Shown: positions 29,904 through 62,318 of the stretch, in pieces
Layout: every line of letters starts with the position of its first letter
How positions within the stretch are numbered: the first letter of the stretch is position 1
From: an uncultured delta proteobacterium
Lineage (GTDB): Bacteria; Desulfobacterota; Binatia; Binatales; Binataceae
Reading direction: 5' to 3'
DNA: 64,000 nucleotides
Assembly: GCA_963830715.1 (NCBI GenBank)
Contig: CAWHNS010000002.1
Span: 217,482-281,481 of the forward strand
Translations under genes and position numbers: made by a program
The notes under the pieces: generated by a model
Databases searched by the model: none
What the model was told of the DNA's origin: nothing
Seen by the model: only the letters and a program-made list of their open reading frames with translations

Positions 29904-30593
29904 ATGATTGACCTTTACTATTGGCCTACGCCGAACGGACACAAGATCACGATCTATCTCGAAGAAACCGGGCTGGAGTACCGCATCGTTCCCGTCAACA
30001 TCCGCGAGGGCGATCAGTTCAAGCCCGAGTTCCTGAAGATCAGTCCGAACAACCGGATGCCCGCGATCGTCGATTCCGACGGACCCGGCGGCAAGCCGAT
30101 TTCGCTGTTCGAGTCGGGCGCGATCCTGCTCTATCTCGGCGAGAAGACCGGCAAGTTGCTGCCCTTGAAATCCGCGCGCGTTATGAAGTCGTGCAGTGGC
30201 TGATGTTCCAGATGGCGAACGTCGGTCCGATGTTCGGCCAGCGCGGCCATTTCCTGCGCGCGGCGCCCGAGAAGATTCCGTACGCGATCGAACGATACAC
30301 CAACGAGTCACGCCGGCTGCTAGACGTGATGGACCGGCGGCTCGGCCAGTCCGCATACCTGGCGGGCGACTACTCGATCGCCGACATCGCAACCTACCCG
30401 TGGGTAGTAGGCACCCGTCGCGAGCCGGAACAACTCGAGTAGCCGTCCCAACTTCAAGCGCTGGCTCGAAGCGATCTCAGAGCGCCCCGCGGTAAAGCGC
30501 GGCGTGGCGGTGATGGCCAACCTGCCGCAACAACCGCTCGACGACAAGGCGCGATCGATACTATACGGCGCCAAACAATTCGAGCGCCGCTGA
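29904..30593 (+). CDS. Nu-class glutathione S-transferase (YfcG-like), two apparent frameshifts (near 30165 and 30440)
   Basis: [21 protein letters not shown]...[12 protein letters not shown]...[17 protein letters not shown] closely matches YfcG. The continuation ([33 protein letters not shown]) and the end ([19 protein letters not shown]...FERR, stop 30591-30593) lie in the other two frames. Confidence 0.8.
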
Positions 30594-30656
30594 CTGGCGA
30601 GCGAGGATAGCGGACCGTCTGGCGAGGCGTTTGACATAGGCAGCGAGGGCGCCGAT

Positions 30657-30953
30657 ATGTCTAAGCTGGGAAAAAGGCCGATCAGGGCCGCCAAGGAAGT
30701 CCACGGAATCGTAAGCGGCGAGATTACGTCCGGTTTTGTCGTGCATGTCCCGGATGATGTTGACGTGAAAGCGCTGAGAAAGCGGCTCGGCTATTCGCAG
30801 TCGCAATTTTCGCGACGCTTCGGGTTCGCCATCGACGCGGTACAGGATTGGGAGCAGCGTCGCAGGACGCCGGACCGAACGGCGCGCGTTTTCTTGACCG
30901 TCATAGCGCGCGAACCGGAGGCGGTCAGCCGCGCGCTGGGGCGATCACACTGA
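30657..30953 (+). CDS. XRE-type HTH protein, COG2944-like (antitoxin-like), no partner toxin seen
   Basis: VKALRKRLGYSQSQFSRRFGFAIDAVQDWEQRRRTPDRTARVFL resembles the HTH of HigA/YiaG-like antitoxins. No small toxin ORF is adjacent. Confidence 0.55.
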   Translation: MSKLGKRPIRAAKEVHGIVSGEITSGFVVHVPDDVDVKALRKRLGYSQSQFSRRFGFAIDAVQDWEQRRRTPDRTARVFLTVIAREPEAVSRALGRSH

Positions 30954-31070
30954 AGAATCGCCTCCCACAACGCGAGCAGAGAGACCGTCTGGCGACCGCC
31001 GTCAGTCCAATATAAAACGATCGCAAGCGCCCCCTTAGCTCAGATGGATAGAGCACAGGATTCCTAATCC
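30952..31070. repeat. direct repeat, left copy (tRNA-Arg upstream flank plus tRNA 5' half)
   Basis: Matches 34416-34533 except at cctcccacaacg versus cctccgcaacg. Confidence 0.9.
31029..31070 (+). pseudogene. truncated tRNA-Arg(CCT) fragment (positions 1 to about 42 only)
   Basis: gcccccttagctcagatggatagagcacaggattcctaatcc is identical to the 5' part of the intact gene at 34492. It then diverges (attacgg...), with no T-arm or 3' acceptor strand. Confidence 0.85.
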
Positions 31071-31338
31071 ATTACGGAACGTAGGGATTTCGTGCCAACG
31101 GGGCGTTATCGAGGAAAATCGGGGCTATTCTGGATCGATAGCGCCCCGTCCCGACCCGTCAAAACCGATAGCGGTCAAGAGTTTGGTGCCAAGTCGGTGC
31201 CAGTTTTTTGGGAGGCGCGCGGCGCTCATCGCCTGGGATCGGCGGCTCCGCGAGATTCTGAGGCAAGCCCGCGCCCAAGGTGATCGAGCTTCACCCGACC
31301 GTCGCGGCTTGAAAACGCACGCCGCAAAATCCGTGGTT

Positions 31339-31806
31339 CTAGGGCTGCACGCTGAAAGTCCCGTGAACCGTGATGATATTGGTTTTGGAAGTCGCGATCG
31401 TTCCGGTAACTCGGCCCTCGAATGAAGGGCCGCCCGGAGTAAAAACTAGATCTAAGCCGCCGATATAACCGGTTCCGCATTGGAGTCCCATGGCCACGCC
31501 GACCAGATCTTGTCCGTCTTCCTCTAGAATCTCCGAATAGATCGGCAGGCAGCCGCCCACTTCGACCCCCTCGTCCGCGCCTTCAAGTATTTGGATACTA
31601 GTTTTGTGGCCCGACTTGATCAGTGTCCCCTCTAGCAAGGTGCAATAGCACTGGCCGGAGGCGCAGTACGAATCAAAACCGTCGTCGCAGGTTCCGTTGT
31701 TGAAAAGCCCCGATGCGCTGAATGAGCCGGTGACGACTCCCGCCCGCGCGGGAATGGCGGCCAGCAGTACCGTGATCAGGAAAAGCGGAAGTGTTTTGAT
31801 CGTCAT
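31339..31806 (-). CDS. hypothetical secreted protein (Cys/Gly-rich)
   Basis: Signal peptide MTIKTLPLFLITVLLAAIPARA. No recognised family. Lies in the AT-richer island. Confidence 0.5.
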   Translation of the reverse strand: MTIKTLPLFLITVLLAAIPARAGVVTGSFSASGLFNNGTCDDGFDSYCASGQCYCTLLEGTLIKSGHKTSIQILEGADEGVEVGGCLPIYSEILEEDGQDLVGVAMGLQCGTGYIGGLDLVFTPGGPSFEGRVTGTIATSKTNIITVHGTFSVQP

Positions 31807-31858
31807 TTTGAACTCTCCTTATTGCGCGGCCCGTCATCTTACTCGTTGGTCAATCTTC

Positions 31859-32477
31859 TCAAGCAACAGGGCGCTGGGCTTTCTTACATTCCTTCCGGGA
31901 GCAAAATATGTCGTGAGCATTGTCATAAATCGGAACATCCTGATCTTTGTGAGCAGCGTCCATTGCCGCTTTGACCACCGCCAAGCCGATGCGCGGAACA
32001 TTCTGATCCTTGTGGGCCGCGTCCATCGTATTCAGCCAGCGGGTCTTTACCCATACGAGAAGCAATCGGTAACGAGAAGCCTGCTCGCCAGGATAGAGGA
32101 GCGTCAGATCAACAACACAACTAACCTGAGCAACCGGAATCGCAACCTCGTCCTGCGTTGATTGAGCGCCGCAATCGCAACCGCCCTTATCCTGAGCGGC
32201 GCAAGTTACCCCATTAGGTGCGCAGCCAAGGAAAAACATAGCGACGCCATACAGCGTGCCACGGCTCGCGACGCCGGGCGGGCAAGGATCGATCAAAATG
32301 CAGCTATGTGTTTTGGCGTTCGGCAATTCCGATAGTTCGGTAACAAATTTCATTCAAGGCTGCTCCGTCGCTATGAGTTTGCATTTCTCGACTTTCGTCA
32401 AAGGGCGAACCGCCCGCGAGGGCCGGGGAGCCCGCGAACAGGAGCGCGAGCGCCGCCACGATCCCGCGCCGGTTTCA
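31859..32477 (-). CDS. hypothetical secreted Cys-rich protein with internal MDAAHKDQxVP duplication (reading frame broken twice near 32355 and 32460)
   Basis: The ATG at 32477 overlaps the stop of the upstream gene (ATGA). The signal-like MKPAR/GIVAALALLFAGSPALAGG needs one base skipped, and the body is ORF 31859..32353. Which parts are real coding sequence is uncertain. Confidence 0.35.
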
Positions 32478-32858
32478 TTGTCCTATCTTTTCGATACATC
32501 GCTGAAAAACTTGCTCTGCTAGGTATTCTCCGGGTAGCGAACGAAACGCGTACACTTCAGCAACGACCCTAAGCTCGTCGGCTTCAATCTGATTTTTTTC
32601 AGCCTGCGAGAGGGGCTGGTATTTCTGCTCGCGCTGGTGTCTTTCCGCGCCATCATGGATTAAGGTTATCCACTCAGATTCCGGCATGCCGTCATTCCGG
32701 GTCTTCGCCGCATATAGGACAAGGGCTCTCTCAGCTTTGCATTGCGAGATTCCCGACGCGATTACATCGGCATCCAGATCGGACTCCTGCGCCCGCGCCG
32801 GACCCGCGAGCAGCAGCCCCACAAGAAAAACCGGCCACACTTTGAGTACCATGAACAT
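32475..32858 (-). CDS. small secreted protein, paralog 1 of island cassette
   Basis: The AGGAGA RBS and M(F)MVLKVWPVFLVGLLLAGPARAQESDL signal peptide are identical to the gene at 33784..34134. Both end in FRSLPGEYLAEQxFQRCIEKxGQ. The ORF-track N-terminal extension is unlikely. Confidence 0.55.
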   Translation of the reverse strand: MFMVLKVWPVFLVGLLLAGPARAQESDLDADVIASGISQCKAERALVLYAAKTRNDGMPESEWITLIHDGAERHQREQKYQPLSQAEKNQIEADELRVVAEVYAFRSLPGEYLAEQVFQRCIEKIGQ

Positions 32859-32976
32859 ACTCTCCTGATAGACGTGTTCCACGTCTGTCTGTAGCATCAC
32901 CCTGCCACGGAAAACGAGGCAAGCCCCCGTTCGGAGCAGCCGAGTCCGCCGCGCCCGCGTAGCTGCGGGGCGGAAG
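32776..32976. repeat. 201-nt direct repeat, copy 1 (5' region plus signal peptide of small secreted protein gene)
   Basis: Differs from 34052-34251 by one single-base indel and one substitution (hand alignment). Confidence 0.9.
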
Positions 32977-33167
32977 GGGATGCGAGGGAGCGGCGATGAG
33001 AGGCGGCAAAGCACAAATCCCTTTCATAGATCGGAATGTCCCTTGAAGCGGGTTCTCGCTTTTTACGGCGCGGGTTCGATTCGCCAGGACAGCCGCTCTA
33101 CGGTCCGATAAGGCTCCGACCGGGGTGCCTGCGCAGAAGACCGCTTCGATGGTCAATCGACAGATTC

Positions 33168-33787
33168 TCACTTGCCCAAGTTCTCGGCCATGGTGGTAGC
33201 ATAGTCACAGTCAAACCAGTCGCGCGCGATGCAACGTTGGGCGGCCTTAAGTGGCAGATCATATTCGCAGACGAGTTGATGTAGCCGGTTTTCGAGGCCG
33301 TCCTTTACTCGCGCGTCACTCCAGAATTGCGGCCAAAGGTTGCGTGGATCATTTGATCCACCTAGTTCTAACGGAATCAAATGATCAAGTTCGCAGCAGG
33401 TATCGTCGGCCCCCTTTGGCAATAACACCGGGCCGGGTTTGCGGTTGTATTCGGCAAAAATTCTCTTCCGTATGTCATCGGGTACTTGGCGCTGGCGCTT
33501 GGCCCATCCGACTGAACAGACATCGGCTTTCGTTATTCCCGGAATCGAATCTCCCGGTGTCAGATACGAATTTGGCTCGGTTTGCTCTCTTTCCATTTCG
33601 TTCAGCGCGATGGCTTCGGTCGTGGTTCCCGATGACCAACCTACTAGGTCGGGGTCGTGATATGATCCAGTTGCGATGGCCTCGATCTTCGCGATGGTAA
33701 GCGCCACATGGCTCCTCACGTCCTGCGCGCGCGCCGAGGAACCGCGAGCAGGACCGCGAGGACTGCTGCCGTGATTCCCGGTTTCAT
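33168..33787 (-). CDS. secreted HNH-motif nuclease-like protein (signal peptide separated by an apparent -1 frameshift near 33730)
   Basis: CCELDHLIPLELGGSNDPRNLWPQ...KDGLENRLHQLVC is the HNH (His-Me finger) pattern seen in secreted and lipoprotein HNH proteins. MKPGITAAVLAVLLAVPRRARA starts at the ATG at 33787, which overlaps the upstream stop (ATGA). Confidence 0.65.
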
Positions 33788-34134
33788 TGCCCTACCTTTT
33801 CGATACATCGCTGAAAATCCTGCTCTGCTAGATATTCTCCGGGTAGCGAACGAAACCCGTACACTTCAGCGAGGAGCTTAAGGTACGAGGCTTCTTCCTG
33901 ATTTTTGAAAGCTTGCGAGTAGGGTTCCTTTTCCACTGTATCGTGCATAATGTTTATAAACTTAGATTCGGGGGCACCCCGATCACGATTCTTCGCAATC
34001 GCTAGGACTAAGGATCTGTCGGATTTGCATCCCGAGAGTTGCACCGCGATTAGATCGGACTCCTGCGCCCGCGCCGGACCCGCGAGCAGCAGCCCCACAA
34101 GAAAAACCGGCCACACTTTGAGTACCATGAACAT
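33784..34134 (-). CDS. small secreted protein, paralog 2 of island cassette
   Basis: Same signal peptide and C-terminal motif as 32475..32858, with a strongly diverged central 70 aa. Confidence 0.55.
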   Translation of the reverse strand: MFMVLKVWPVFLVGLLLAGPARAQESDLIAVQLSGCKSDRSLVLAIAKNRDRGAPESKFINIMHDTVEKEPYSQAFKNQEEASYLKLLAEVYGFRSLPGEYLAEQDFQRCIEKVGQ

Positions 34135-34251
34135 ACTCTCCTGATAGACGTGTTCCACGTCTGTCTGTAGCATCACCCTGCCACGGAAACGAGGCAAGCC
34201 CCCGTTCGGGGCAGCCGAGTCCGCCGCGCCCGCGTAGCTGCGGGGCGGAAG
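34052..34251. repeat. 200-nt direct repeat, copy 2
   Basis: See 32776-32976. Confidence 0.9.
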
Positions 34252-34415
34252 AAGGCGCAAAGGGGCGGCGATCAGAAGGAACAGGGGTCGCGACCGCGTA
34301 GCGGCGCGGTTTCGATTCGCGGAAGAGCGGCGGTCCCTGGAAATGGGAATCGCTCTTTCGCTTTCGTGCTCACGCGATGGGACGCACAGTTGCGCGAGAT
34401 TGTGACCGGGGAGAA

Positions 34416-34533
34416 GAAGAATCGCCTCCGCAACGCGAGCAGAGAGACCGTCTGGCGACCGCCGTCAGTCCAATATAAAACGATCGCAAGCGCCCCCTTA
34501 GCTCAGATGGATAGAGCACAGGATTCCTAATCC
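34416..34533. repeat. direct repeat, right copy (tRNA-Arg upstream flank plus 5' half)
   Basis: See 30952-31070. Confidence 0.9.
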
Positions 34534-34568
34534 TGGGGCCGTGGGTTCGAATCCCGCAGGGGGCGCCA
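34492..34568 (+). tRNA. tRNA-Arg (anticodon CCT), CCA encoded
   Basis: Acceptor GCCCCCT/AGGGGGC. TAGCTCAGATGGATAGAGC D-arm. Anticodon stem CAGGA/TCCTG with loop TTCCTAA. T-arm GTGGG-TTCGAAT-CCCGC. Discriminator G followed by CCA. Confidence 0.92.
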
Positions 34569-36545
34569 TAGCGAGCGATCCCGGATATGGGAATCAGATC
34601 CGCTCGGCTGGGTTGAACGCTCCGCGATGCGTGCGTGGCCCTCGAATCGCGGTAGCAGGCGGGCTGAGTTTAGGATGAAGATCATTTCCGAAGACACGTG
34701 GACGAAGGCCGCCAGCGGTGGATTGAGCACGCCTACCGCTGCGAGCGCCATGCCGGCCAGATCGACCGTTATCGTACCTGCGAAGTTCTGCCAGATGATT
34801 CTCCGGGTCCATCGCGCGACTTCCAGGGTCTCCGCAAACCTGACCAGGTCGTTGCCGAGCAGCACCACGTCGGCGCTCTCGCGAGCGACGTCGGTGCCGG
34901 AGCCCATCGCGACGCCGACGCTGGCTTCGGCCAGCGCGGGCGCATCGTTGATGCCGTCGCCGACGATCGCTACTATGCGCCCGCTCGCCACCATGTCCTT
35001 GATCCGCGAGAGCTTCGCTTCCGGCAGCATCTCGGCCTCGAACCGGCCGATCCCGAGTTGTTCCGCGAGCGCCGCGGCTGAGGCCCTCGTGTCTCCGGTC
35101 AGGAGCACGCATCCGATGCCCATCCGATCGAACGCCGCGATTGCTCGCCGGGCCTCTGGTCGAACCGTATCGCCGATGACGATCGTTCCAACAAGGCGCC
35201 CGTCGCGCGCGACATACACGGGACTGCCCGCGTATGCGGCCGGCGCCGCCGGTATCTCGATGCCATGCTCGGTCATCAGCGCGCGATTGCCGGCCACGAT
35301 TGTCGATCCTTTCACGATCGCCGCGATTCCCCGGCCGGGCGCGTAATCGAATCGCTCGGGCTCATCGACGGACAGTCCCATCGCGATCGCGCGTGCGACG
35401 ATCGCCCTGCCCAGCGGATGTTCCGAACGCATCTCCGCGGATGCAGCGATCGCGATGACGTCCTGTTCCGTGATGTCCGGCACCGGAAGCACATCCTGAA
35501 CCTCGGTGCGCCCGAAAGTGAGCGTGCCGGTCTTGTCGAGCACGACGGTGTCCACGCGCCCGAGCGTCTCCAGGTAAAGGCCGCCCTTGACGATCGCGCC
35601 GAGCCGCGCCGCGCGGCCGATGCCGCCCAGAATCGCGAGCGGCGTGCCGGCGGCGATGCCGCATGCGCCGGCCACGATTACCACCGAGATGGTGCACCGA
35701 GCGTCGCGGGTCACGATGAACGTGAGCGCCGCGGCCGCGAGCGCGAGGTAGACCAGGTACCCGGCCAGCCGATCCGCCAGGCGCTGCACGGGCGCGCGGG
35801 AGCGCTCCGCATTCTCGACCGCCTCGACGATCTTGCCATAGCTCGTGTCGCGTCCGATGCGCTCGGTCCGGACTTCCAGCGCGCCGGACTGGTTGATCGT
35901 GCCGGCGTAGACTGCGGACCCGGTGCTTTTTTCCACCGCGAGCGACTCGCCCGTAATCCTCGCCTGATCGACAAACGAATGGCCCGCGATCACCACGCCG
36001 TCAACCGCTACCAAGGCACCGGGATTCACCAGCACGGAGTCGCCGGGCCGCAGGCTGTCCGCCGCGATCTCGCGCAGTGTGCCGTCCCGGCGGACGGTGA
36101 CGGAGCGCGGAAGGAACTCGAGTAGCTCACCGATCGCGCGGCGCCCGCGAGCGATCGTCAGGTTTTCAAGCACCTCGGCCCCCAATACAAACAGCGTGAT
36201 TATCAGCGCGGTGAAGAACTCTCCGATTGCAGCCGCGGCCGCGATCGCGATCGACATGGAGAGTTCCATCGTCATCCGCCGGGCGGCCAGGTTCTCAGCC
36301 GCTTCCCTGAAGATCGGCCACCCGCCTACTGCGACGCCTAGCACGCCCGGCACGCTGACACCTGGAAACGGCTCCCAGAGCCGCAGGCGAACCCCGATCG
36401 CGGCGAGGGCGACCAGAGCTATGCGGCCGGCGTCGGCCCATTCGAAACGGCGTCCGCTCTCGGGCGCCTCGATTGCGGGCGGACGGTCGCTATCGTGGCG
36501 GGATTCGGCTACACCCGCGTGCGCGAGATCATAGTCCCGTTCCAA
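34527..36545 (-). CDS. P1B-type heavy-metal translocating ATPase, no N-terminal HMA domain, atypical TM motif
   Basis: DKTGTLT, TGD, VGDGINDAPAL and the A-domain TGES are present. GAC appears where CPC/SPC is expected (VVIVAGACGIAAGTP). TTG start. The ORF's last 14 codons lie inside the convergent tRNA-Arg gene. Confidence 0.88.
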   Translation of the reverse strand: MERDYDLAHAGVAESRHDSDRPPAIEAPESGRRFEWADAGRIALVALAAIGVRLRLWEPFPGVSVPGVLGVAVGGWPIFREAAENLAARRMTMELSMSIAIAAAAAIGEFFTALIITLFVLGAEVLENLTIARGRRAIGELLEFLPRSVTVRRDGTLREIAADSLRPGDSVLVNPGALVAVDGVVIAGHSFVDQARITGESLAVEKSTGSAVYAGTINQSGALEVRTERIGRDTSYGKIVEAVENAERSRAPVQRLADRLAGYLVYLALAAAALTFIVTRDARCTISVVIVAGACGIAAGTPLAILGGIGRAARLGAIVKGGLYLETLGRVDTVVLDKTGTLTFGRTEVQDVLPVPDITEQDVIAIAASAEMRSEHPLGRAIVARAIAMGLSVDEPERFDYAPGRGIAAIVKGSTIVAGNRALMTEHGIEIPAAPAAYAGSPVYVARDGRLVGTIVIGDTVRPEARRAIAAFDRMGIGCVLLTGDTRASAAALAEQLGIGRFEAEMLPEAKLSRIKDMVASGRIVAIVGDGINDAPALAEASVGVAMGSGTDVARESADVVLLGNDLVRFAETLEVARWTRRIIWQNFAGTITVDLAGMALAAVGVLNPPLAAFVHVSSEMIFILNSARLLPRFEGHARIAERSTQPSGSDSHIRDRSLWRPLRDSNPRPQD

Positions 36546-36557
36546 GGTGGTTCCGGG

Positions 36558-36836
36558 CTACTTCAGGTAGGCCTGAACGACTGCGATCAGTTCTTCCGCG
36601 CCTTGTGCCCGGCTGCGGTTGCGCTCGTGCGCGGGATCGACGACGTGCGTCCGGATGTGGCCTTCGATGATCTCGGCCATCAGGCTGTTGATCGCGCCGC
36701 GCACCGCGACGGCAAGGTGAAGCACTTTCGCGCATCCTTTCTCTTCCTCGAGCGCCCGCTCGAGGGCCTCAATCTGGCCGCGAACGCGCCGCACCCGGTT
36801 CAGGAGTTTCTCCTTGTCGCGAATCGTGTGACCCAT
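36558..36836 (-). CDS. CsoR/RcnR-family metal-sensing repressor with RcnR-type H3-C35-H60-H64 fingerprint
   Basis: 92 aa from the ATG at 36836 (MGHTIRDKEKLLNRVRRVRGQIEALERAL...). His3, Cys35, His60 and His64 were counted directly. The ORF-track 202-aa version is an upstream extension. Confidence 0.85.
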   Translation of the reverse strand: MGHTIRDKEKLLNRVRRVRGQIEALERALEEEKGCAKVLHLAVAVRGAINSLMAEIIEGHIRTHVVDPAHERNRSRAQGAEELIAVVQAYLK

Positions 36837-56012: not shown

Positions 56013-57272
56013 TCAGCCGAGTTCGGCCGCGGTGTCGGCGATAGCGCCGGCGGCGCGATCGCGGATCTCGTCCATCAGGCGATCGTTGATTACGGTCGAG
56101 AGTGCGATCAACCCGCGTGGCGCGATGAAGAGGCCGTGGTTGAGCGCTGCGAGATGGAACATCCGCATCGCGCGAGAGTCGGCGCGTGCGACCGTTGCCG
56201 GCGGCGCCTCGTTCAGAAAGAAGACATTGAGCAGCGAGCCCGCCTGACGGATCGAGAACGGCAGCCCGGCCTTTTTCGCCGCGCGAGCGAGTTCGCTTGC
56301 GAGATGGCCCGCGAGCCGATCCATCGCGGCGATTCTCTCGGCGGTGAGTTCGCGAACCGAGACGGCGCCGGCCGCGCAGGTCAGCGGATTGCCGTTGAAG
56401 GTTCCCGAATGCCATAGCGGCGAGCGGCCACGCGGGTCGAAGATCGACATGACGGCCTCGCTGCCGCCGAGCGCTCCAACCGGCAATCCGCCGCCGATGA
56501 TCTTGCCCATCATGGTGAGGTCGGGACGCACTCCGGCGAGCGACTGCGCTCCGCCGGTTGCGAGGCGCAGCGTTATCACCTCATCGATCACGAACAGAGC
56601 TCCCGCGGTGCGGGCCGCGCCGGCAACGCTCTGCAGGAATCCTTCCGGCGGAGTGACTATTCCCGCCGAGCCCATCACCGGCTCGAGGAACACCGCGGCG
56701 ATCTCGCCGCCGCGCTGCTCGAGGATCCGCTCGAACGCTCCGGCGTCGCCATAGTCGGCCAATAGCGTGCGTTCAGCGTCGCGGCCGGCCATCCCGGCCT
56801 CGAAATCGTCGTACGAGCCGTGATACCCGTAGCGCGCCATCAGGACAAGCTTGCGGTCCGTCAGGCGGCGCGCCGCCTGGATCGCGAGCATCCCGGCTTC
56901 CGTACCCGAATTGCAAAACCGCACGCGCTCGACCGACGCGACGCGCGCGCACAACAGCGCCGCAAGTTCGGTCTGCGCCTCGGATCGCGCCGGCCACGCG
57001 GTGCCGCGACGCATCGCGGCCGCGATCGCGTCGCAAATTGGCGGGTAGGCGTGCCCGTGCACGAGGCTCGTATAGTTGCCCAGCAAATCAATGTAGCGGT
57101 TGCCATCGGCGTCCCACATGAACGGTCCCTCGCCGCGCGCGATCACCAGCGGGTAGGGGCGGTAGTAGGTCGTCGAGCGGGTATCTCCGCCGGGCATCAC
57201 CGCTTCCGCGCCGGCGGCCAGCTCGGCGGATTTGGGGGTGGCGGCGCGGTAGCGCTCCTCGATTCGGCTCAT
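56013..57272 (-). CDS. class III aminotransferase (glutamate-1-semialdehyde 2,1-aminomutase-like)
   Basis: 420 aa from the ATG at 57272, with GAGGTG upstream. Motifs AVMPGGDTRS, FCNSGTEA, VIDEV and MGKIIGGGLPVGA (PLP lysine region). The ORF-track 660-aa form is an extension antisense to ridA. Confidence 0.85.
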   Translation of the reverse strand: MSRIEERYRAATPKSAELAAGAEAVMPGGDTRSTTYYRPYPLVIARGEGPFMWDADGNRYIDLLGNYTSLVHGHAYPPICDAIAAAMRRGTAWPARSEAQTELAALLCARVASVERVRFCNSGTEAGMLAIQAARRLTDRKLVLMARYGYHGSYDDFEAGMAGRDAERTLLADYGDAGAFERILEQRGGEIAAVFLEPVMGSAGIVTPPEGFLQSVAGAARTAGALFVIDEVITLRLATGGAQSLAGVRPDLTMMGKIIGGGLPVGALGGSEAVMSIFDPRGRSPLWHSGTFNGNPLTCAAGAVSVRELTAERIAAMDRLAGHLASELARAAKKAGLPFSIRQAGSLLNVFFLNEAPPATVARADSRAMRMFHLAALNHGLFIAPRGLIALSTVINDRLMDEIRDRAAGAIADTAAELG

Positions 57273-57403
57273 GTTTTTCACCTCGGGCTTTTCACCTCGG
57301 GACTCGCTTCGCTTCCGGCCCGCAACTGTCTCCCTCGGACGCGCGGAGAAGATCAAGGAAGGCGGCCCGATCCTTCGACAACTCAGGACAAGGGTTCCAC
57401 CTG

Positions 57404-57805
57404 CTAGGGCAGCATCGCGATCGCTTCGACCTCGATCAGCAGGCCGTCGAGAGCAAGCGCCGCAACGCCCACCATCGTGCTCGCCGGGGGATTCTCTTTG
57501 CCGAAAAATTCGCGCCGTACTTCGCCGATCAGCGCCAGGTCCGACGGCTTGCAGTTCACCACGTAGGTCGTGATTTTGACCACGTCGGCGGGCGTCGCGC
57601 CTGCGCCGGACAGAGCCGCGCCAAGGTTCTGGTACGCCTGCCGCGCCTGCGCGCGCAAATCTCCCGCGCCCGCGAGCTGCATTTCCTTCGTATATGCGAC
57701 CTGTCCGGCGACGAAGAGCATCCTGCGACCGCCCTCGACCGCGACGACATGCGTGTAACCGCGCGGCGGATGAAGCGCCGGAGGATTTACGAATTGTTTT
57801 TGCAT
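57404..57805 (-). CDS. RidA/YjgF family reactive-intermediate deaminase
   Basis: 133 aa with the GYTHVV...FVAGQVA...IEVEAIA pattern. Confidence 0.85.
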   Translation of the reverse strand: MQKQFVNPPALHPPRGYTHVVAVEGGRRMLFVAGQVAYTKEMQLAGAGDLRAQARQAYQNLGAALSGAGATPADVVKITTYVVNCKPSDLALIGEVRREFFGKENPPASTMVGVAALALDGLLIEVEAIAMLP

Positions 57806-57969
57806 GTGGCCTCCTGATTTTGTCCCGAGAATAGCATCGATGCGTCAATAGCTCACATAGATTTGGCAGGCTGGTCGCGAAGTTTGCAGTCCGCAAGCGG
57901 GCCAAACCGATCAGCCTGATGGACGGTTGCAAATTCTTCCCGGCTGTTTTACAGAAGTCTGCGAATCGC

Positions 57970-58374
57970 ATGAAGCCGAAGGTAAGTATTATCACTCTCG
58001 GAGTTACGGACTTCGAGCGATCGATGCGGTTCTATCGCGAGGGGCTCGGATTTCCCACGCACAACTTCAAGCCAGGCGAAGACATCGTCTTCTTCAAGAT
58101 GGAAGGCTCGTGGATTGCGCTCTATCCGCGCGAGAAGCTTGCCGAAGATGCGACCGTCTCGTCCGATGGCTCCGGCTTCACCGGTATTACGCTGGCCCAT
58201 AACGTGAAGACCAAGGCCGAGGTCAACGCGGTGATCGCTCTGGCCGCGAAAGCCGGCGCGCGAATCGTGAAAAAGCCCCAGCAGGTTTTCTGGGGCGGAT
58301 ACTCGGGTTACTTTGCGGATCCCGACGGATATCTCTGGGAAGTCGCCTACAATCCCTTCACCGACTTGACCTGA
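57970..58374 (+). CDS. VOC-family (glyoxalase/bleomycin-resistance fold) protein
   Basis: VSIITLGVTDFERSMRFYREGLGF ... DPDGYLWEVAYNP. Confidence 0.8.
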   Translation: MKPKVSIITLGVTDFERSMRFYREGLGFPTHNFKPGEDIVFFKMEGSWIALYPREKLAEDATVSSDGSGFTGITLAHNVKTKAEVNAVIALAAKAGARIVKKPQQVFWGGYSGYFADPDGYLWEVAYNPFTDLT

Positions 58375-58409
58375 AGCAGGTTCGCTGACTACGAACTGTT
58401 CCGGATCAG

Positions 58410-58841
58410 TCAGACCGTACGTATTCTCAAAACGGGGCATCGTGCGTGGCGCAGGATCTTTTCGGCAGTGCCGCCAGGCAGAAGAGAGTGCAGCCCGGTG
58501 CGGCCCTGCATCGAGATCACAATGAGGTCGATCTTCAGATCGTTCACCAGCTTGTCGATCACCTCGTGAACAACGCCAAAATGAAGTTCGGTGCGGCATT
58601 TGGGATAGAGCTGCATTGCTTCCTTCCCCAGGCGATCGAGGTCGACTGACGCCGCCTCGCCATAACGCTCGAGTAATTCCGCCGGGTCGTACCAGCGCGA
58701 AACCCCATAGGGCAGCGGCTCGACAACGTGAACGAGCACCACTTCGGATTCGTGTTCACGTGCGAGTTCCGTCGCGTATCTTAGCGCCGCCTGCGAGTGC
58801 GCGGAAAAGTCCGTAGGCACCAGAATCCGTTCTATTTTCAT
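58410..58841 (-). CDS. universal stress protein (UspA family)
   Basis: MKIERILVPTDFSAHSQAAL...GSTAEKILRHARCPVL type motifs (here GGTAEKILRHARCPVL). Confidence 0.85.
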   Translation of the reverse strand: MKIERILVPTDFSAHSQAALRYATELAREHESEVVLVHVVEPLPYGVSRWYDPAELLERYGEAASVDLDRLGKEAMQLYPKCRTELHFGVVHEVIDKLVNDLKIDLIVISMQGRTGLHSLLPGGTAEKILRHARCPVLRIRTV

Positions 58842-58877
58842 TCTTTTTTCCCCAGTCAAAGAAAAATTGCTCAGGAT

Positions 58878-59906
58878 TCATTGGAAAAAAGCCATTGAGT
58901 TCAAAACTGCGAAACAGAGAATCAGCAGCAGAGCCCCGGTGCCGAGGCCAATCCTCGCCCACTCGCGGCTTGTGATTCCCAGCCGGCTCGCCGCAACGAT
59001 GTTGGGTATGTTGCCAGTGACAAGCGCCCCTCCGCTAATCAGTAGGCCGAGGAACGCCGCACGCTGCTGATTCATGCTCAGGGACGGTCCTATCTCCACG
59101 GCCGCAAGGGTCGAATTGTTGACAACTGCGGAAATGGTGTTCATCCAAAACAACAGCCCATTTGGAAGGCGATGGATATACGCATCGATCACGGGCCTGA
59201 GACCATCCGAAAGTGCGACAAGTCCGGCGATAAAAACGTACACCTTGCCGGGACGAATCAGCAGGACAAGCCTCCACGGGTCCTTCCCTTCAGCCGCATC
59301 CACGCGCTCGCCGGAAGCGAACGGCAGAAACAAGGTAGGAACCGCGGCGAGAGCGACCCCGACAACAATGAATGGGCCGAGAAGGCGGGCAAGGTACCAG
59401 AAGTCGGCGTGCAGAGAGCGGAGAACGACTGCGATACCGGGCATGCCCAGAGGCGTGAGGCCCGCACCAAAGCCGATAGCGAAACAGGCAAATACCGTCG
59501 CGGCAATTTCCACCCATCGCTCACAACGAAGCAGAGAGATTGCTTCCACGAACACAAGCGCTGACACAACCGGAGTTATGAAGGCCGCGAGAAGGCCAAG
59601 CATGATCGCCAGGCAGAAACAGATAATCCGCGGGTCCAGCACTTGGATTACCCGCCGAAACAGCTGATCGAGATAGTCCCGCAGGAGACGAAAGGCGGCG
59701 CCGAAAATCAGAACGCCCAAAGTGAATGGGAGCGGCTCATTCAAGGCTGCCCAGACGACTGCCAAGCTGAATTGTCCCGTGATACAGGCGCTTAGCACTC
59801 CGACCAGCAGAAAAAAGAGTTCGACGTTCCGCTCAATCGGCCCGACGAAAACGGGTCCGAGCAGAACTACCAGGACGATCAGTGTCGCAAAGGCCAATGT
59901 CGCCAT
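58878..59906 (-). CDS. DUF1646-family integral membrane protein (putative cation transporter)
   Basis: A polytopic membrane protein of about 340 aa. The N-terminus GPIERNVELFFLLVGVLSA resembles DUF1646 as I recall it. The assignment is tentative. Confidence 0.5.
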   Translation of the reverse strand: MATLAFATLIVLVVLLGPVFVGPIERNVELFFLLVGVLSACITGQFSLAVVWAALNEPLPFTLGVLIFGAAFRLLRDYLDQLFRRVIQVLDPRIICFCLAIMLGLLAAFITPVVSALVFVEAISLLRCERWVEIAATVFACFAIGFGAGLTPLGMPGIAVVLRSLHADFWYLARLLGPFIVVGVALAAVPTLFLPFASGERVDAAEGKDPWRLVLLIRPGKVYVFIAGLVALSDGLRPVIDAYIHRLPNGLLFWMNTISAVVNNSTLAAVEIGPSLSMNQQRAAFLGLLISGGALVTGNIPNIVAASRLGITSREWARIGLGTGALLLILCFAVLNSMAFFQ

Positions 59907-60277
59907 CCTGGCGACCTAGTGTATCAACAAACTTTCGCCGAGGCAGAGTACCTGACGGCGCGTTCGGGTCGTCCGGTGATCGAACGTCCATAGGCCGCTA
60001 GTCCGCCACCTCGTACACCTCCGGGCTGGGCCGCCGCCTGCGGCGATCCGGCGCGCGCATTTCAAATTGCCGCAAGGTCCAATTGCAAATCGCGCGCGCC
60101 CGACGGCGACCTTTGACTAAAGGCCAGCATCGGCGGCGCTTCCCGGCGTGGCACGCTTACTGCGTTAGGAACCGGCGAGAGGTCGATAAGATAGCGTGTT
60201 TGCAATCAGCAAATGGTTGCCCCCGCTGAGTCTCGAATCTCATTTCGGATCCGTCTGACTATTGGAGGGTTTCCAAG

Positions 60278-60373
60278 GTGAACCTGGAGATTTGGCTGCC
60301 GGCGATGTTCCTTCTCGGACTAGTGAGCATGGGACTCTGCTACGCGTTCATGATCGCGTGCGAAAAGATTTAA
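60278..60373 (+). CDS. candidate 31-aa hydrophobic peptide upstream of kdpF
   Basis: GGAGGG lies 8 nt upstream of the GTG at 60278. It encodes (M)NLEIWLPAMFLLGLVSMGLCYAFMIACEKI, a single TM helix. Its TAA overlaps the AAGGAG RBS of kdpF. Confidence 0.3.
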   Translation: MNLEIWLPAMFLLGLVSMGLCYAFMIACEKI

Positions 60374-60384
60374 GGAGCTTGAAG

Positions 60385-60465
60385 ATGATTTATTTCACGT
60401 CGGCCGTATCGGCGTTCTTGTTCGTGTACTTGTGGGTCGCGCTCATTCGTCCTGAATGGTTCTAA
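60385..60465 (+). CDS. kdpF: K+-transporting ATPase subunit F
   Basis: The 26-aa MIYFTSAVSAFLFVYLWVALIRPEWF matches the KdpF pattern (...Y L . Y A L . R P E . F). AAGGAG RBS. Directly precedes kdpA. Confidence 0.7.
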   Translation: MIYFTSAVSAFLFVYLWVALIRPEWF

Positions 60466-60501
60466 GCGGCGAACCAGCGCTTCAACAAAGAGGTACAGAC
60501 T

Positions 60502-62318
60502 ATGTGGCTTCTCCCGATTTCAATGCTCGTCTTTACCACGATGCTCGCCATCCCGCTGAGCAAGTATCTGGCGTGGATCATGGACGGCAAATATCATGCG
60601 CCGGCCTTCCTGCGATGGTTTGAGAAACGTCTCGACAGCGGACCGCAGAACTGGAAGCAGTACACGGCCTCGCTGCTGGTTTTCAATACGGTGCTGTTCG
60701 TCTTCGGCTTCGTGGTGCTTTCCCTGCAACCATGGATGCCGCTGAACGGGCTCGGCCGGGGAATGCTCGAACCGACGACCATCTTTCACTCGGTGGTCTC
60801 GTTCATGACGAATACCGACCTGCAGCACTACTCGGGCGATCAACACTTCTCCAATTTCAGCCAGATATTTTTCTGCATTACCAACTTTTTCCTGTCGGCA
60901 TCGATCGGGTTTTGCGGTCTCACCGCCATCATCCGCGCCTTTCGCAGCGAAAAACTGATCGGCAATTTTTTCGTCGATATGTGGCGTGTGTTTGTCTATA
61001 TGTTTTTGCCGGTCGGATTTGTCTTGAGCCTGCTCATGCTTCAGCAGGGCATGCCGATGACGTTCCGGAGTGCCTACCAGGTCAACACGCTCGAGCCGGC
61101 GTCGATGGGCACCGACGACAGGGGCGCGGCCAAGCAACAGACCATCGTTGTGGGACCGCTGGCCGTCTTCGAACCGCTGAAGCAGATCGGGACCAACGGC
61201 GGCGGATTCTTCGGCATGAATTCGGCGCATCCGTTCGAAAATCCGAGCGCCTTCACGAATTTTCTCGAGTGCGTCGCGATGATGCTGTTTCCGTTTTCGC
61301 TGGTGCTGATGTACGGCCGGATGCTCGGCCGGATGCGCCATTCTGTCGTGATTTTCTCCGTCATGATGGTGATGATGGTCGGCACGATCGTCTGGGCTAT
61401 CTACTTCGACACGATGAAGCCCAATCCGGGCCTTACTGCCCATCCTGAGGCCAGAAACTTTTCGATCCCGAGCGCCGGCGCGCCTGGAGGCAAACGCGAC
61501 TTCACGTTGCCGGCCGTCGCCGGGCTGCCGGTCGACCAGCATCTCGGAAACCTCGAGGGCAAGGAGCTGCGCTTCGGCACTTCGGCCGGTGCGACTTTCG
61601 CGGCGATGACGGTTGACGTGACCGACGGCGCAGTCAACTGCGAACACGACAGCCTCAATCCAATCGCGGCGCTCTCACCGATGTGGGGGATGTGGGTGAA
61701 CTGCATCTACGGCGGCAAGGGCGTGGGCATGATCAATATGCTCCTGTTCCTGATCCTGGGCGTTTTCGTCGCGGGGCAGATGGTCGGTCGCACGCCCGAG
61801 TACCTCGGAAAGAAAATCGGCGGACGTGAGATGGCCCTGCTGATGATCGCTCTGCTGGTACATCCAATCATGATTCTGGGCCCAGCGGCCTCTTTGCTGC
61901 GACCAGCTGGGGAATGAAGGCGGAGAGCAATCCGGGTCCGCACGGGTTCTCTCAGATCGTGTACCAGTTCTCATCGGCCTCCGCTAACAACGGCTCGGCG
62001 TTCGACGGTCTCGGCGTCACCTACGGCCTCAACAGCAACCCTAGTCCGGCACCTACCGCGGTCGCGTGGGACATCGCAGCCGGCCTGGTCATAATCATAA
62101 GCCGGTTCCTCCCCATCATTGCGCCGATCGCGATGGCGGCAAGTCTTGGCGCCAAGAAATCGACGCCATTCACCCTGGGCACTCTGCGGGACGACACACC
62201 GACATTTGGCTTCCTCCTGCTCGGGACCGTTCTGATCATCGGGGCTCTGCTGTTCCTTCCTGTAGCCGCGCTTGGGCCAATAGCCGATCACCTGGGTCCC
62301 ATTCCGTTCGGAGGATAA
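60502..62318 (+). CDS. kdpA: K+-transporting ATPase subunit A (apparent -1 frameshift near 61886)
   Basis: The KdpA N-terminal 460 aa are in ORF 60502..61917 (GTNGGGFFGMNSAHPFENP). The C-terminus (GLFAATSWGMKAESNPGPHGFSQIVYQFSSASANNGSAF...) continues in ORF 61914..62318. Confidence 0.9.

Follow-up and report, generated by a model that had tools for sequence, protein, structure and literature searches.

We analysed a stretch of 64 kb (64,000 nucleotides, hereafter the window) from a metagenome-assembled genome (MAG) of an uncultured delta proteobacterium of the Binataceae, which holds a small island lying between two copies of part of a tRNA-Arg gene. The only tRNA called in the window is a tRNA-Arg(CCT) on the plus strand at 34492-34568 (ARAGORN; Rfam, 67.8 bits). 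The upstream flank and the first part of this gene occur twice, in direct orientation on the plus strand: a left, attL-like copy covers 30952-31070 (119 nt) and a right, attR-like copy 34416-34533 (118 nt). The two are 98.3% identical and differ at only two places, by one substitution and one 1-nt indel at 30966-30967 / 34430. Each copy is made of 76-77 nt of upstream flank followed by tRNA linear positions 1-42, so that it includes the 7-nt anticodon loop and stops after three of the five nucleotides of the 3′ strand of the anticodon stem. The right copy, with its 76-nt flank, runs on into the complete tRNA gene. The left copy (flank at 30952-31028, tRNA positions 1-42 at 31029-31070) turns into unrelated DNA (ATTACGG...) and is a dead 5′ fragment, in which neither ARAGORN nor Rfam calls a tRNA; it starts inside the TGA stop codon (30951-30953) of a gene for a helix-turn-helix (HTH) protein. 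A search of the 64 kb that allowed up to 3 mismatches detected no third 5′ half and no second 3′ half of the tRNA; shuffled sequence likewise gave 0 matches. An initial annotation of this DNA, made from its letters, had described two copies identical but for one short spot, composed of a 77-nt flank and tRNA positions 1 to about 42 and ending in the 3′ strand of the anticodon stem, of which only the right one forms a full tRNA and the left one begins at the stop of the HTH gene; our analysis bears out this description in every part.

The DNA enclosed by the repeats (31071-34415, 3345 bp) has a GC content of 0.568, compared to a window mean of 0.632 (standard deviation 0.024, in windows of the size of the island). 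It ranks 8th lowest of 607 such windows, and those below it all overlap the island or else a second stretch, near 57.7 kb. The GC content at third codon positions (GC3) points the same way, with 0.55-0.66 in the island genes and 0.71-0.84 in the flanking genes. The island is compositionally foreign, and what had been judged by eye, that it is less GC-rich than its flanks, holds on calculation. The second stretch (57200-61000) is as low in GC as the island at the same window size; it shows no tRNA repeat and its genes are ordinary (Usp, DUF1646, a glyoxalase and the start of kdpA).

No gene for a recombinase of any kind was found in the island, in its non-coding ends or in the rest of the window. 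Pfam searches up to E=10 of the island open reading frames (ORFs) and of the ORFs in its non-coding ends gave no recombinase match, including to PF00589; all ORFs within 31071-31338 lacked any Pfam match at that threshold. Searching the window by tblastn with metagenomic integrases of the relevant family, described below, returned nothing, and a hidden Markov model (HMM) of these integrases run against all six frames reached a best E-value of only 0.27, which is no match. Integrase remnants were looked for in the two non-coding arms, 31071-31338 and 34277-34415, with Pfam up to E=10 and tblastn, and none was found. The right arm is the place for an integrase gene that would sit at the tRNA-proximal end and read towards the tRNA, and it is devoid of integrase similarity. 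The absence of a recombinase ORF had been noticed from the letters alone, with a profile search of 31071-31338 proposed as a check, and it withstood that search.

The arrangement is not unprecedented, and the island joins a known but uncommon kind. In the Islander collection, islands are defined by an intact tRNA gene (tDNA) and a displaced end fragment of it, and a 5′ fragment lying upstream is accepted (Hudson et al. 2015, PMC4383910); 159 of its 3919 tRNA islands have a displaced 5′ fragment, compared to 3760 with a 3′ fragment (PMC4383910). The window shows the layout of this minority: an intact tDNA at 34492-34568, a fragment upstream of it on the same strand (31029-31070), the island in between and a crossover centred on the anticodon. 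The size of the island, 3.3-3.5 kb, falls within the Islander range of 2-200 kb, and with its 3345 bp of low GC and GC3 and its ORFan genes A1 and A2 it is distinct from the core genome. Two features set it apart from the Islander cases. No tyrosine integrase gene lies inside or overlaps the island, as Pfam, tblastn and the HMM searches over the window agree, so that the integrase filter of Islander would reject it; and 77 nt of the promoter flank are repeated along with the tRNA part. Islands such as this one escape automatic finders in which an integrase is a requirement.

The initial annotation had assumed that tRNA-targeting integrases duplicate the 3′ part of the tRNA, and had concluded that the classical model does not explain the structure. 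Given the 159 of 3919 Islander cases with a 5′ fragment and the plasmid pTN3 of Thermococcus nautili, which uses a tRNA 5′ half, the premise is too strong, and the conclusion does not stand either: the locus has the anatomy of a classical tDNA island in exact mirror image, and the classical model, mirrored in the same way, explains it. What seemed to breach the rule of tRNA integration is thus a known minority mode, of which integrase-less copies exist. The footprint is that of a rare, already known mirror-image entry into tRNA genes, here without an integrase of its own.

For pTN3, the 41 bp in common with attB are the 5′ half of a tRNA-Leu gene, and the restored tRNA is severed from its own promoter (Cossu et al. 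2017, PMC5495485). A review describes such use of the tRNA 5′ half as unique among archaeal integrases and "seldomly encountered in bacteria" (PMC8371274). The likeness to the pTN3-like integrases of Thermococcales lies in the att identity, which is the tRNA 5′ half, with 41 bp there and 42 nt here, and in the restored tRNA, which would here too be parted from the promoter it had and rely on sequence brought by the element. In contrast, pTN3 is archaeal and has an SSV-type integrase, whose gene contains attP and becomes split upon integration, whereas the window comes from a bacterium and has no integrase. Integration at the 5′ end of a gene is also described for the dusA-specific integrases and their islands (Farrugia et al. 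2015, PMC4482086); these differ from our locus in having a protein-coding target and an integrase.

Integrase-less elements flanked by att sites are known as cis-mobilizable elements (CIMEs) from the Streptococcus elements of the ICESt1/ICESt3 type; they are thought to arise by decay of integrative elements and can be mobilized by a cognate integrase acting in trans. The island resembles them in that its cargo lies between attL- and attR-like direct repeats, 98% identical, and includes no genes for recombination or transfer, the att function of the repeats being putative here. It differs from CIMEs in that the 64 kb hold no cognate element or integrase and in that the att site is on the 5′ side of the tRNA.

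The same tRNA 5′ half was then sought in soil metagenomes. Scanning the metagenome contigs for the exact 42-nt 5′ half of tRNA-Arg(CCT) gave 120 loci, 14 of which (L099, L137, L150, L170 and L198 among them) carry a tyrosine integrase gene directly upstream of the tRNA and on the same strand. The main family of these integrases has 417-419 residues and a PF00589 domain; its stop codon lies 16-22 nt before tRNA position 1, and its gene is preceded by an excisionase-like HTH_17 gene and an HTH_3 (XRE) gene. Unlike that of pTN3, this integrase gene ends before the tRNA and is not split. Genes commonly carried by genomic islands accompany it, among them ArdC, AbiEi and a czcCBA-like heavy-metal efflux cluster. 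The integrase regions of L099 and L170 are 99.3% identical and those of L099 and L150 91% identical, while the tRNA 3′ halves and the downstream DNA differ. Conversely, L170, where the integrase lies upstream, and L097, where the upstream flank is native, agree in the 3′ half and in the 40 nt downstream. Near-identical integrase regions standing beside different 3′ halves imply that the element brings the integrase, the spacer and the 5′ half, and that the 3′ half is the host's own. As judged from these comparisons, the integrase loci represent mirror-image, 5′-side integration. Their integrase has no relative in viral contigs, and all its matches among phage and plasmid records are below 31% identity; the family appears to employ a tRNA 5′ half in bacteria much as pTN3-type integrases do in archaea. 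An integrase family that abuts the 5′ end of tRNA-Arg(CCT) and supplies it with a new 5′ half may matter more than the island itself, and it could be characterized as a recombination system with a widely conserved 42-nt attB.

Other loci of the survey show the broken end seen in the window. Upstream of the tRNA, the identity between L103 and L165 is 95-99%; the tRNA of L165 is intact, and L103 turns into unrelated AT-rich DNA exactly after tRNA position 42, which is the breakpoint of the left copy in the window. In L105 and L124, a decayed upstream flank of about 50 nt and tRNA positions 1-37 lie 614 nt upstream of an intact tRNA, and the insert contains one small lipoprotein-like ORF and no integrase. 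On comparison of the sequences, these two loci have the architecture of the window, duplicated flank included, in an older state. The unit they share (L105:2834-3794 and L124:3308-4278, minus strand) is conserved, and the upstream contexts of the two contigs differ. Classical 3′ fragments are found downstream of the same tRNA in L101, L097 and L160. With fragments on both sides, tRNA-Arg(CCT) is evidently used from both its 5′ and its 3′ side. Two loci show odd tRNAs that look like hybrid pseudo-tRNAs left by recombination at the gene: L132 has two tRNA-Arg copies 3046 nt apart, one of them with mismatched T-stem halves, and in the tRNA of L095 the 3′ strand of the acceptor does not pair with the 5′ strand.

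These loci bear on the idea that the repeat arose by local rearrangement with no mobile element involved, for example as an old tandem duplication of the tRNA and its promoter whose upstream copy lost its 3′ half, or by break repair or template switching in which the 119 nt were doubled as foreign DNA came in. L132 shows that a pair of tRNA-Arg copies can lie 3 kb from each other, and the locus has undergone other rearrangements, namely the truncation of a toxin-antitoxin module on the left and a duplication inside the island with a 138-nt tract of 100% identity. However, a tandem duplication would also have copied the DNA that follows the tRNA, or the island, and neither is seen. Only two differences separate the repeat copies, which implies a recent event, yet the island is foreign in composition; and the breakpoint coincides with that of independent loci (L103, and L105/L124). 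We regard this explanation as quite improbable.

The reading that we favour, and consider probable although by no means certain, is that the island is an integrase-less remnant or satellite of an integrative element that uses the 5′ side of tRNA-Arg(CCT). Such an element would carry the tRNA 5′ half, accompanied in this case by the upstream flank with its promoter, and would recombine with the chromosomal tRNA-Arg(CCT) in or beside the anticodon stem-loop. The att identity in the window is indeed the tRNA 5′ half ending at the anticodon stem-loop, at position 42, and tyrosine integrases exchange strands at the anticodon loop in sites of the anticodon type (cited in PMC8371274). The host flank and 5′ half (30952-31070) would be left at the far end as a dead fragment, and the copy brought by the element (34416-34533) would be joined to the host 3′ half, restoring an expressed tRNA. 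The presence of flank within the repeat would be explained by the need of the restored tRNA for an element-borne promoter. Since the 77 nt of flank are not conserved, their near-identity in the two copies suggests that the element copy came from the same lineage; it may have been captured from such a host in an earlier aberrant excision, as in specialized transduction. The last insertion could then have been made by an integrase acting in trans, or by RecA. Long att identities that reach past the tRNA are known from actinomycete integrative plasmids. The integrase would have been lost or would never have been part of the unit. The island would now be immobile, or would move only by means of an integrase in trans or of RecA recombination between the 119-nt repeats. 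Of the four possibilities that the initial annotation had listed, the best fit is given by an unusual 5′-side att site and by a decayed element, two ideas that do not conflict; capture by homologous recombination could apply to the last step, and an assembly artefact is unlikely.

Several observations weigh against the origin of the island in a 5′-side element. Neither an integrase nor an excisionase, nor a remnant of one, is present in the island or in the 64 kb searched. The integrase-bearing loci contain no close relative of any island gene, and none of the 120 metagenomic flanks resembles the 77-nt flank of the window. Nor does this reading account for the start of the repeat exactly at the stop codon of the HTH gene. 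The left junction found no independent read support in the soil runs described below. For the lineage itself, neither an empty site nor a second occupied site was seen among the sampled relatives; the occupied and empty pairs, L170/L097 and L103/L165, are in other lineages only. A CoA-transferase gene 1.8 kb to the left of the locus has its best matches in Binataceae MAGs ("uncultured delta proteobacterium" or Candidatus Binatus), at no more than 79% identity. In 80 genome loci with this CoA-transferase, mostly from Binataceae MAGs, synteny does not extend past the query gene, and neither the HTH gene, the ATPase gene of the right flank nor this tRNA was found nearby. The nearest sampled relatives, at about 75-79% protein identity, are thus not syntenic at the locus. 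Lastly, the identity of the repeats extends 77 nt into a non-conserved flank that site-specific recombination does not need, so that an extra step is required.

This last point speaks for a Campbell-type capture, in which a circle sharing about 119 nt of identity was integrated through a single RecA crossover and no integrase ever acted at the locus. A long, nearly perfect repeat with 77 nt of non-conserved flank fits homology better than a minimal att core, and the lack of an integrase fits as well. What such a capture leaves unexplained is where a circle bearing a tRNA fragment that ends at position 42 would come from, unless a 5′-side element had earlier been excised aberrantly, in which case the explanation merges into the one we favour. 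Nor does it account for the 42|43 break in L103, the similar break in L105/L124 and the integrases that adjoin the same 5′ half. We therefore hold homologous capture as the sole mechanism to be unlikely.

Read support was examined in three soil runs of one study, in which the region is covered at about 2x. The initial annotation had asked for reads across both junctions. The boundary between the island and the right repeat is covered: a short-read contig of 229 nt from run X1 matches 34218-34446 without differences and carries the right-copy variant of the repeat. The left junction is the uncovered one, and its 23-mer has no match in the metagenome contigs. This leaves room for a misassembly in which two strains or loci were joined in the MAG through a shared tRNA and flank, and the source contig (414,529 bp) is of imperfect indel quality, with a frameshifted glutathione S-transferase (GST) gene and a split kdpA. 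However, a mis-join at a repeat would leave a full tRNA on the left and not an integrase-type 42|43 cut. In addition, the copies differ at two positions and the short-read contig from another run ties the right-copy variant to unique island DNA; island positions 31963-32113 are found at 100% identity in a second run; and the same architecture exists in unrelated contigs. An artefact is, in our opinion, very improbable.

A more speculative version of the 5′-side element, which we think doubtful, would make the island an active satellite, mobilized in trans by an uncharacterized family of 5′-half-specific tRNA-Arg(CCT) integrases, with a left copy able to express a chimeric small RNA. The left copy keeps a promoter, and a terminator-like hairpin starts 113 nt past it; a small RNA made there could begin with the tRNA 5′ half. 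The hairpin lies in the left inner non-coding arm (31071-31338), which contains a long hairpin at about 31098-31148 and, at 31183-31209 on the plus strand, the terminator-like hairpin with its T-run, identified in a terminator scan in which such matches are near chance frequency (6 found, 4.3 expected). RNA folding here gave a z-score of -3.15. As a weak point for the reading that we favour, the plus-strand hairpin amid minus-strand genes would fit a former plus-strand unit that ran across the att site in a circle. A candidate inverted repeat between the anticodon arm and 31082-31095 was dropped, with 10 of 15 positions matching, about the chance level. Broken-tRNA patterns and the tRNA 5′ half had no match in viral contigs. 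At the other end of the island, the right inner non-coding arm (34277-34415) joins unique island DNA to the right repeat.

The island carries five ORFs, all on the minus strand, as the initial annotation had stated; its further claim that all five have signal peptides is right only in part, since a signal-peptide-like N-terminus is in frame, as judged by eye, in just three of them (C, A1 and A2). In B1 and B2 such N-termini are present but in another reading frame than the main part of the ORF, again by eye. Exact look-ups of the proteins encoded in the window returned no record. Gene C (31339-31806) encodes a Cys-rich protein of 155 residues, with a GC3 of 0.66 and no family match in Pfam or NCBIfam. 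Gene B1 (31859-32475) is also Cys-rich, is unrelated to B2 and is spread over three frames, as a 164-residue ORF (31859-32353), a 51-residue ORF (32304-32459) and an ATG at about 32475; it has no Pfam family match and is either a pseudogene or affected by assembly indels. Genes A1 (32475-32858, 127 residues) and A2 (33784-34134, 116 residues) are paralogous, secreted-looking ORFans. The two proteins are 65% identical, with identical signal-peptide-like N-termini, and among 1.84 billion representative proteins they are related only to each other.

Gene B2 (33168-33790) consists of a 183-residue ORF (33168-33719) and a signal-peptide-like start at 33790 that is out of frame by one base. Its 316 homologues form a widespread family without annotation, in which a single member is named as an HNH endonuclease. 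The Pfam HNH match of B2 itself is below threshold (E 0.013). In the family alignment, D112, N127 and H147 are invariant and H113 is nearly so. The AlphaFold (AF2) model has a pLDDT of 81, and nearly all of its top fold matches in the Protein Data Bank are HNH domains, although these matches are weak (E at least 0.14). From conserved residues and predicted fold, B2 is HNH-nuclease-like and would belong to the HNH superfamily.

A segmental duplication inside the island (32415-33001 / 33726-34276) is 78% identical overall and had gone unmentioned in the initial annotation; an A gene is contained in each of its copies, along with the promoter region and the beginning of a B gene. It includes a tract of 138 nt with 100% identity (32776-32913 and 34052-34189), which corresponds to the 5′ untranslated region and the signal-peptide coding part of A1 and A2. 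Such identity amid proteins that are about 65% identical suggests recent gene conversion within the island. By prediction, all of the cargo is secreted: a small ORFan precedes another protein in each of two paralogous modules, and a further protein lies outside them. These ORFan secreted proteins and the predicted secreted HNH-like nuclease are uncharacterized, and not evidently remarkable.

Outside the island, the GST gene (29904-30442) is frameshifted near 30165, where it has a run of CCC and related contigs of run X1 have CCCC, and kdpA (60502-62318) is split into 60502-61917 and 61914-62318. Both breaks point to indel errors of the assembly, or to pseudogenes. As these genes outside the island are frameshifted too, the frameshifts within it are unsafe as a sign of decay, and the frame breaks of B1 and B2 may be assembly indels rather than decay.

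The left outer flank is formed by the HTH gene (30657-30953, plus strand), which encodes an orphan antitoxin of the MqsA/NadS type (Pfam HTH_3 and MqsA_antitoxin; NCBIfam NadS and MqsA). In its relatives L083 and L087, a gene for a RelE-family toxin of 117 residues lies upstream and overlaps the start of the HTH gene. The toxin gene is absent here, and homology to these relatives is limited to about 30638-30945. The HTH homologues, at 85-89% identity, belong to RelE-HTH modules in varied contexts, never with a tRNA alongside. On the right, a heavy-metal P-type ATPase gene (34527-36545, minus strand; Pfam) of native composition (GC3 of 0.80) forms an operon with a CsoR-like repressor gene (36558-36830). 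Homologues of the ATPase in Binataceae are 70-77% identical and keep the CsoR-ATPase pair; no tRNA-Arg was found downstream in those examined. The tRNA-Arg gene, on the opposite strand, shares its 3′ end with the last 14 codons of the ATPase ORF, stop included (34527-34568), and the true C-terminus of the ATPase may be shorter than the ORF indicates.

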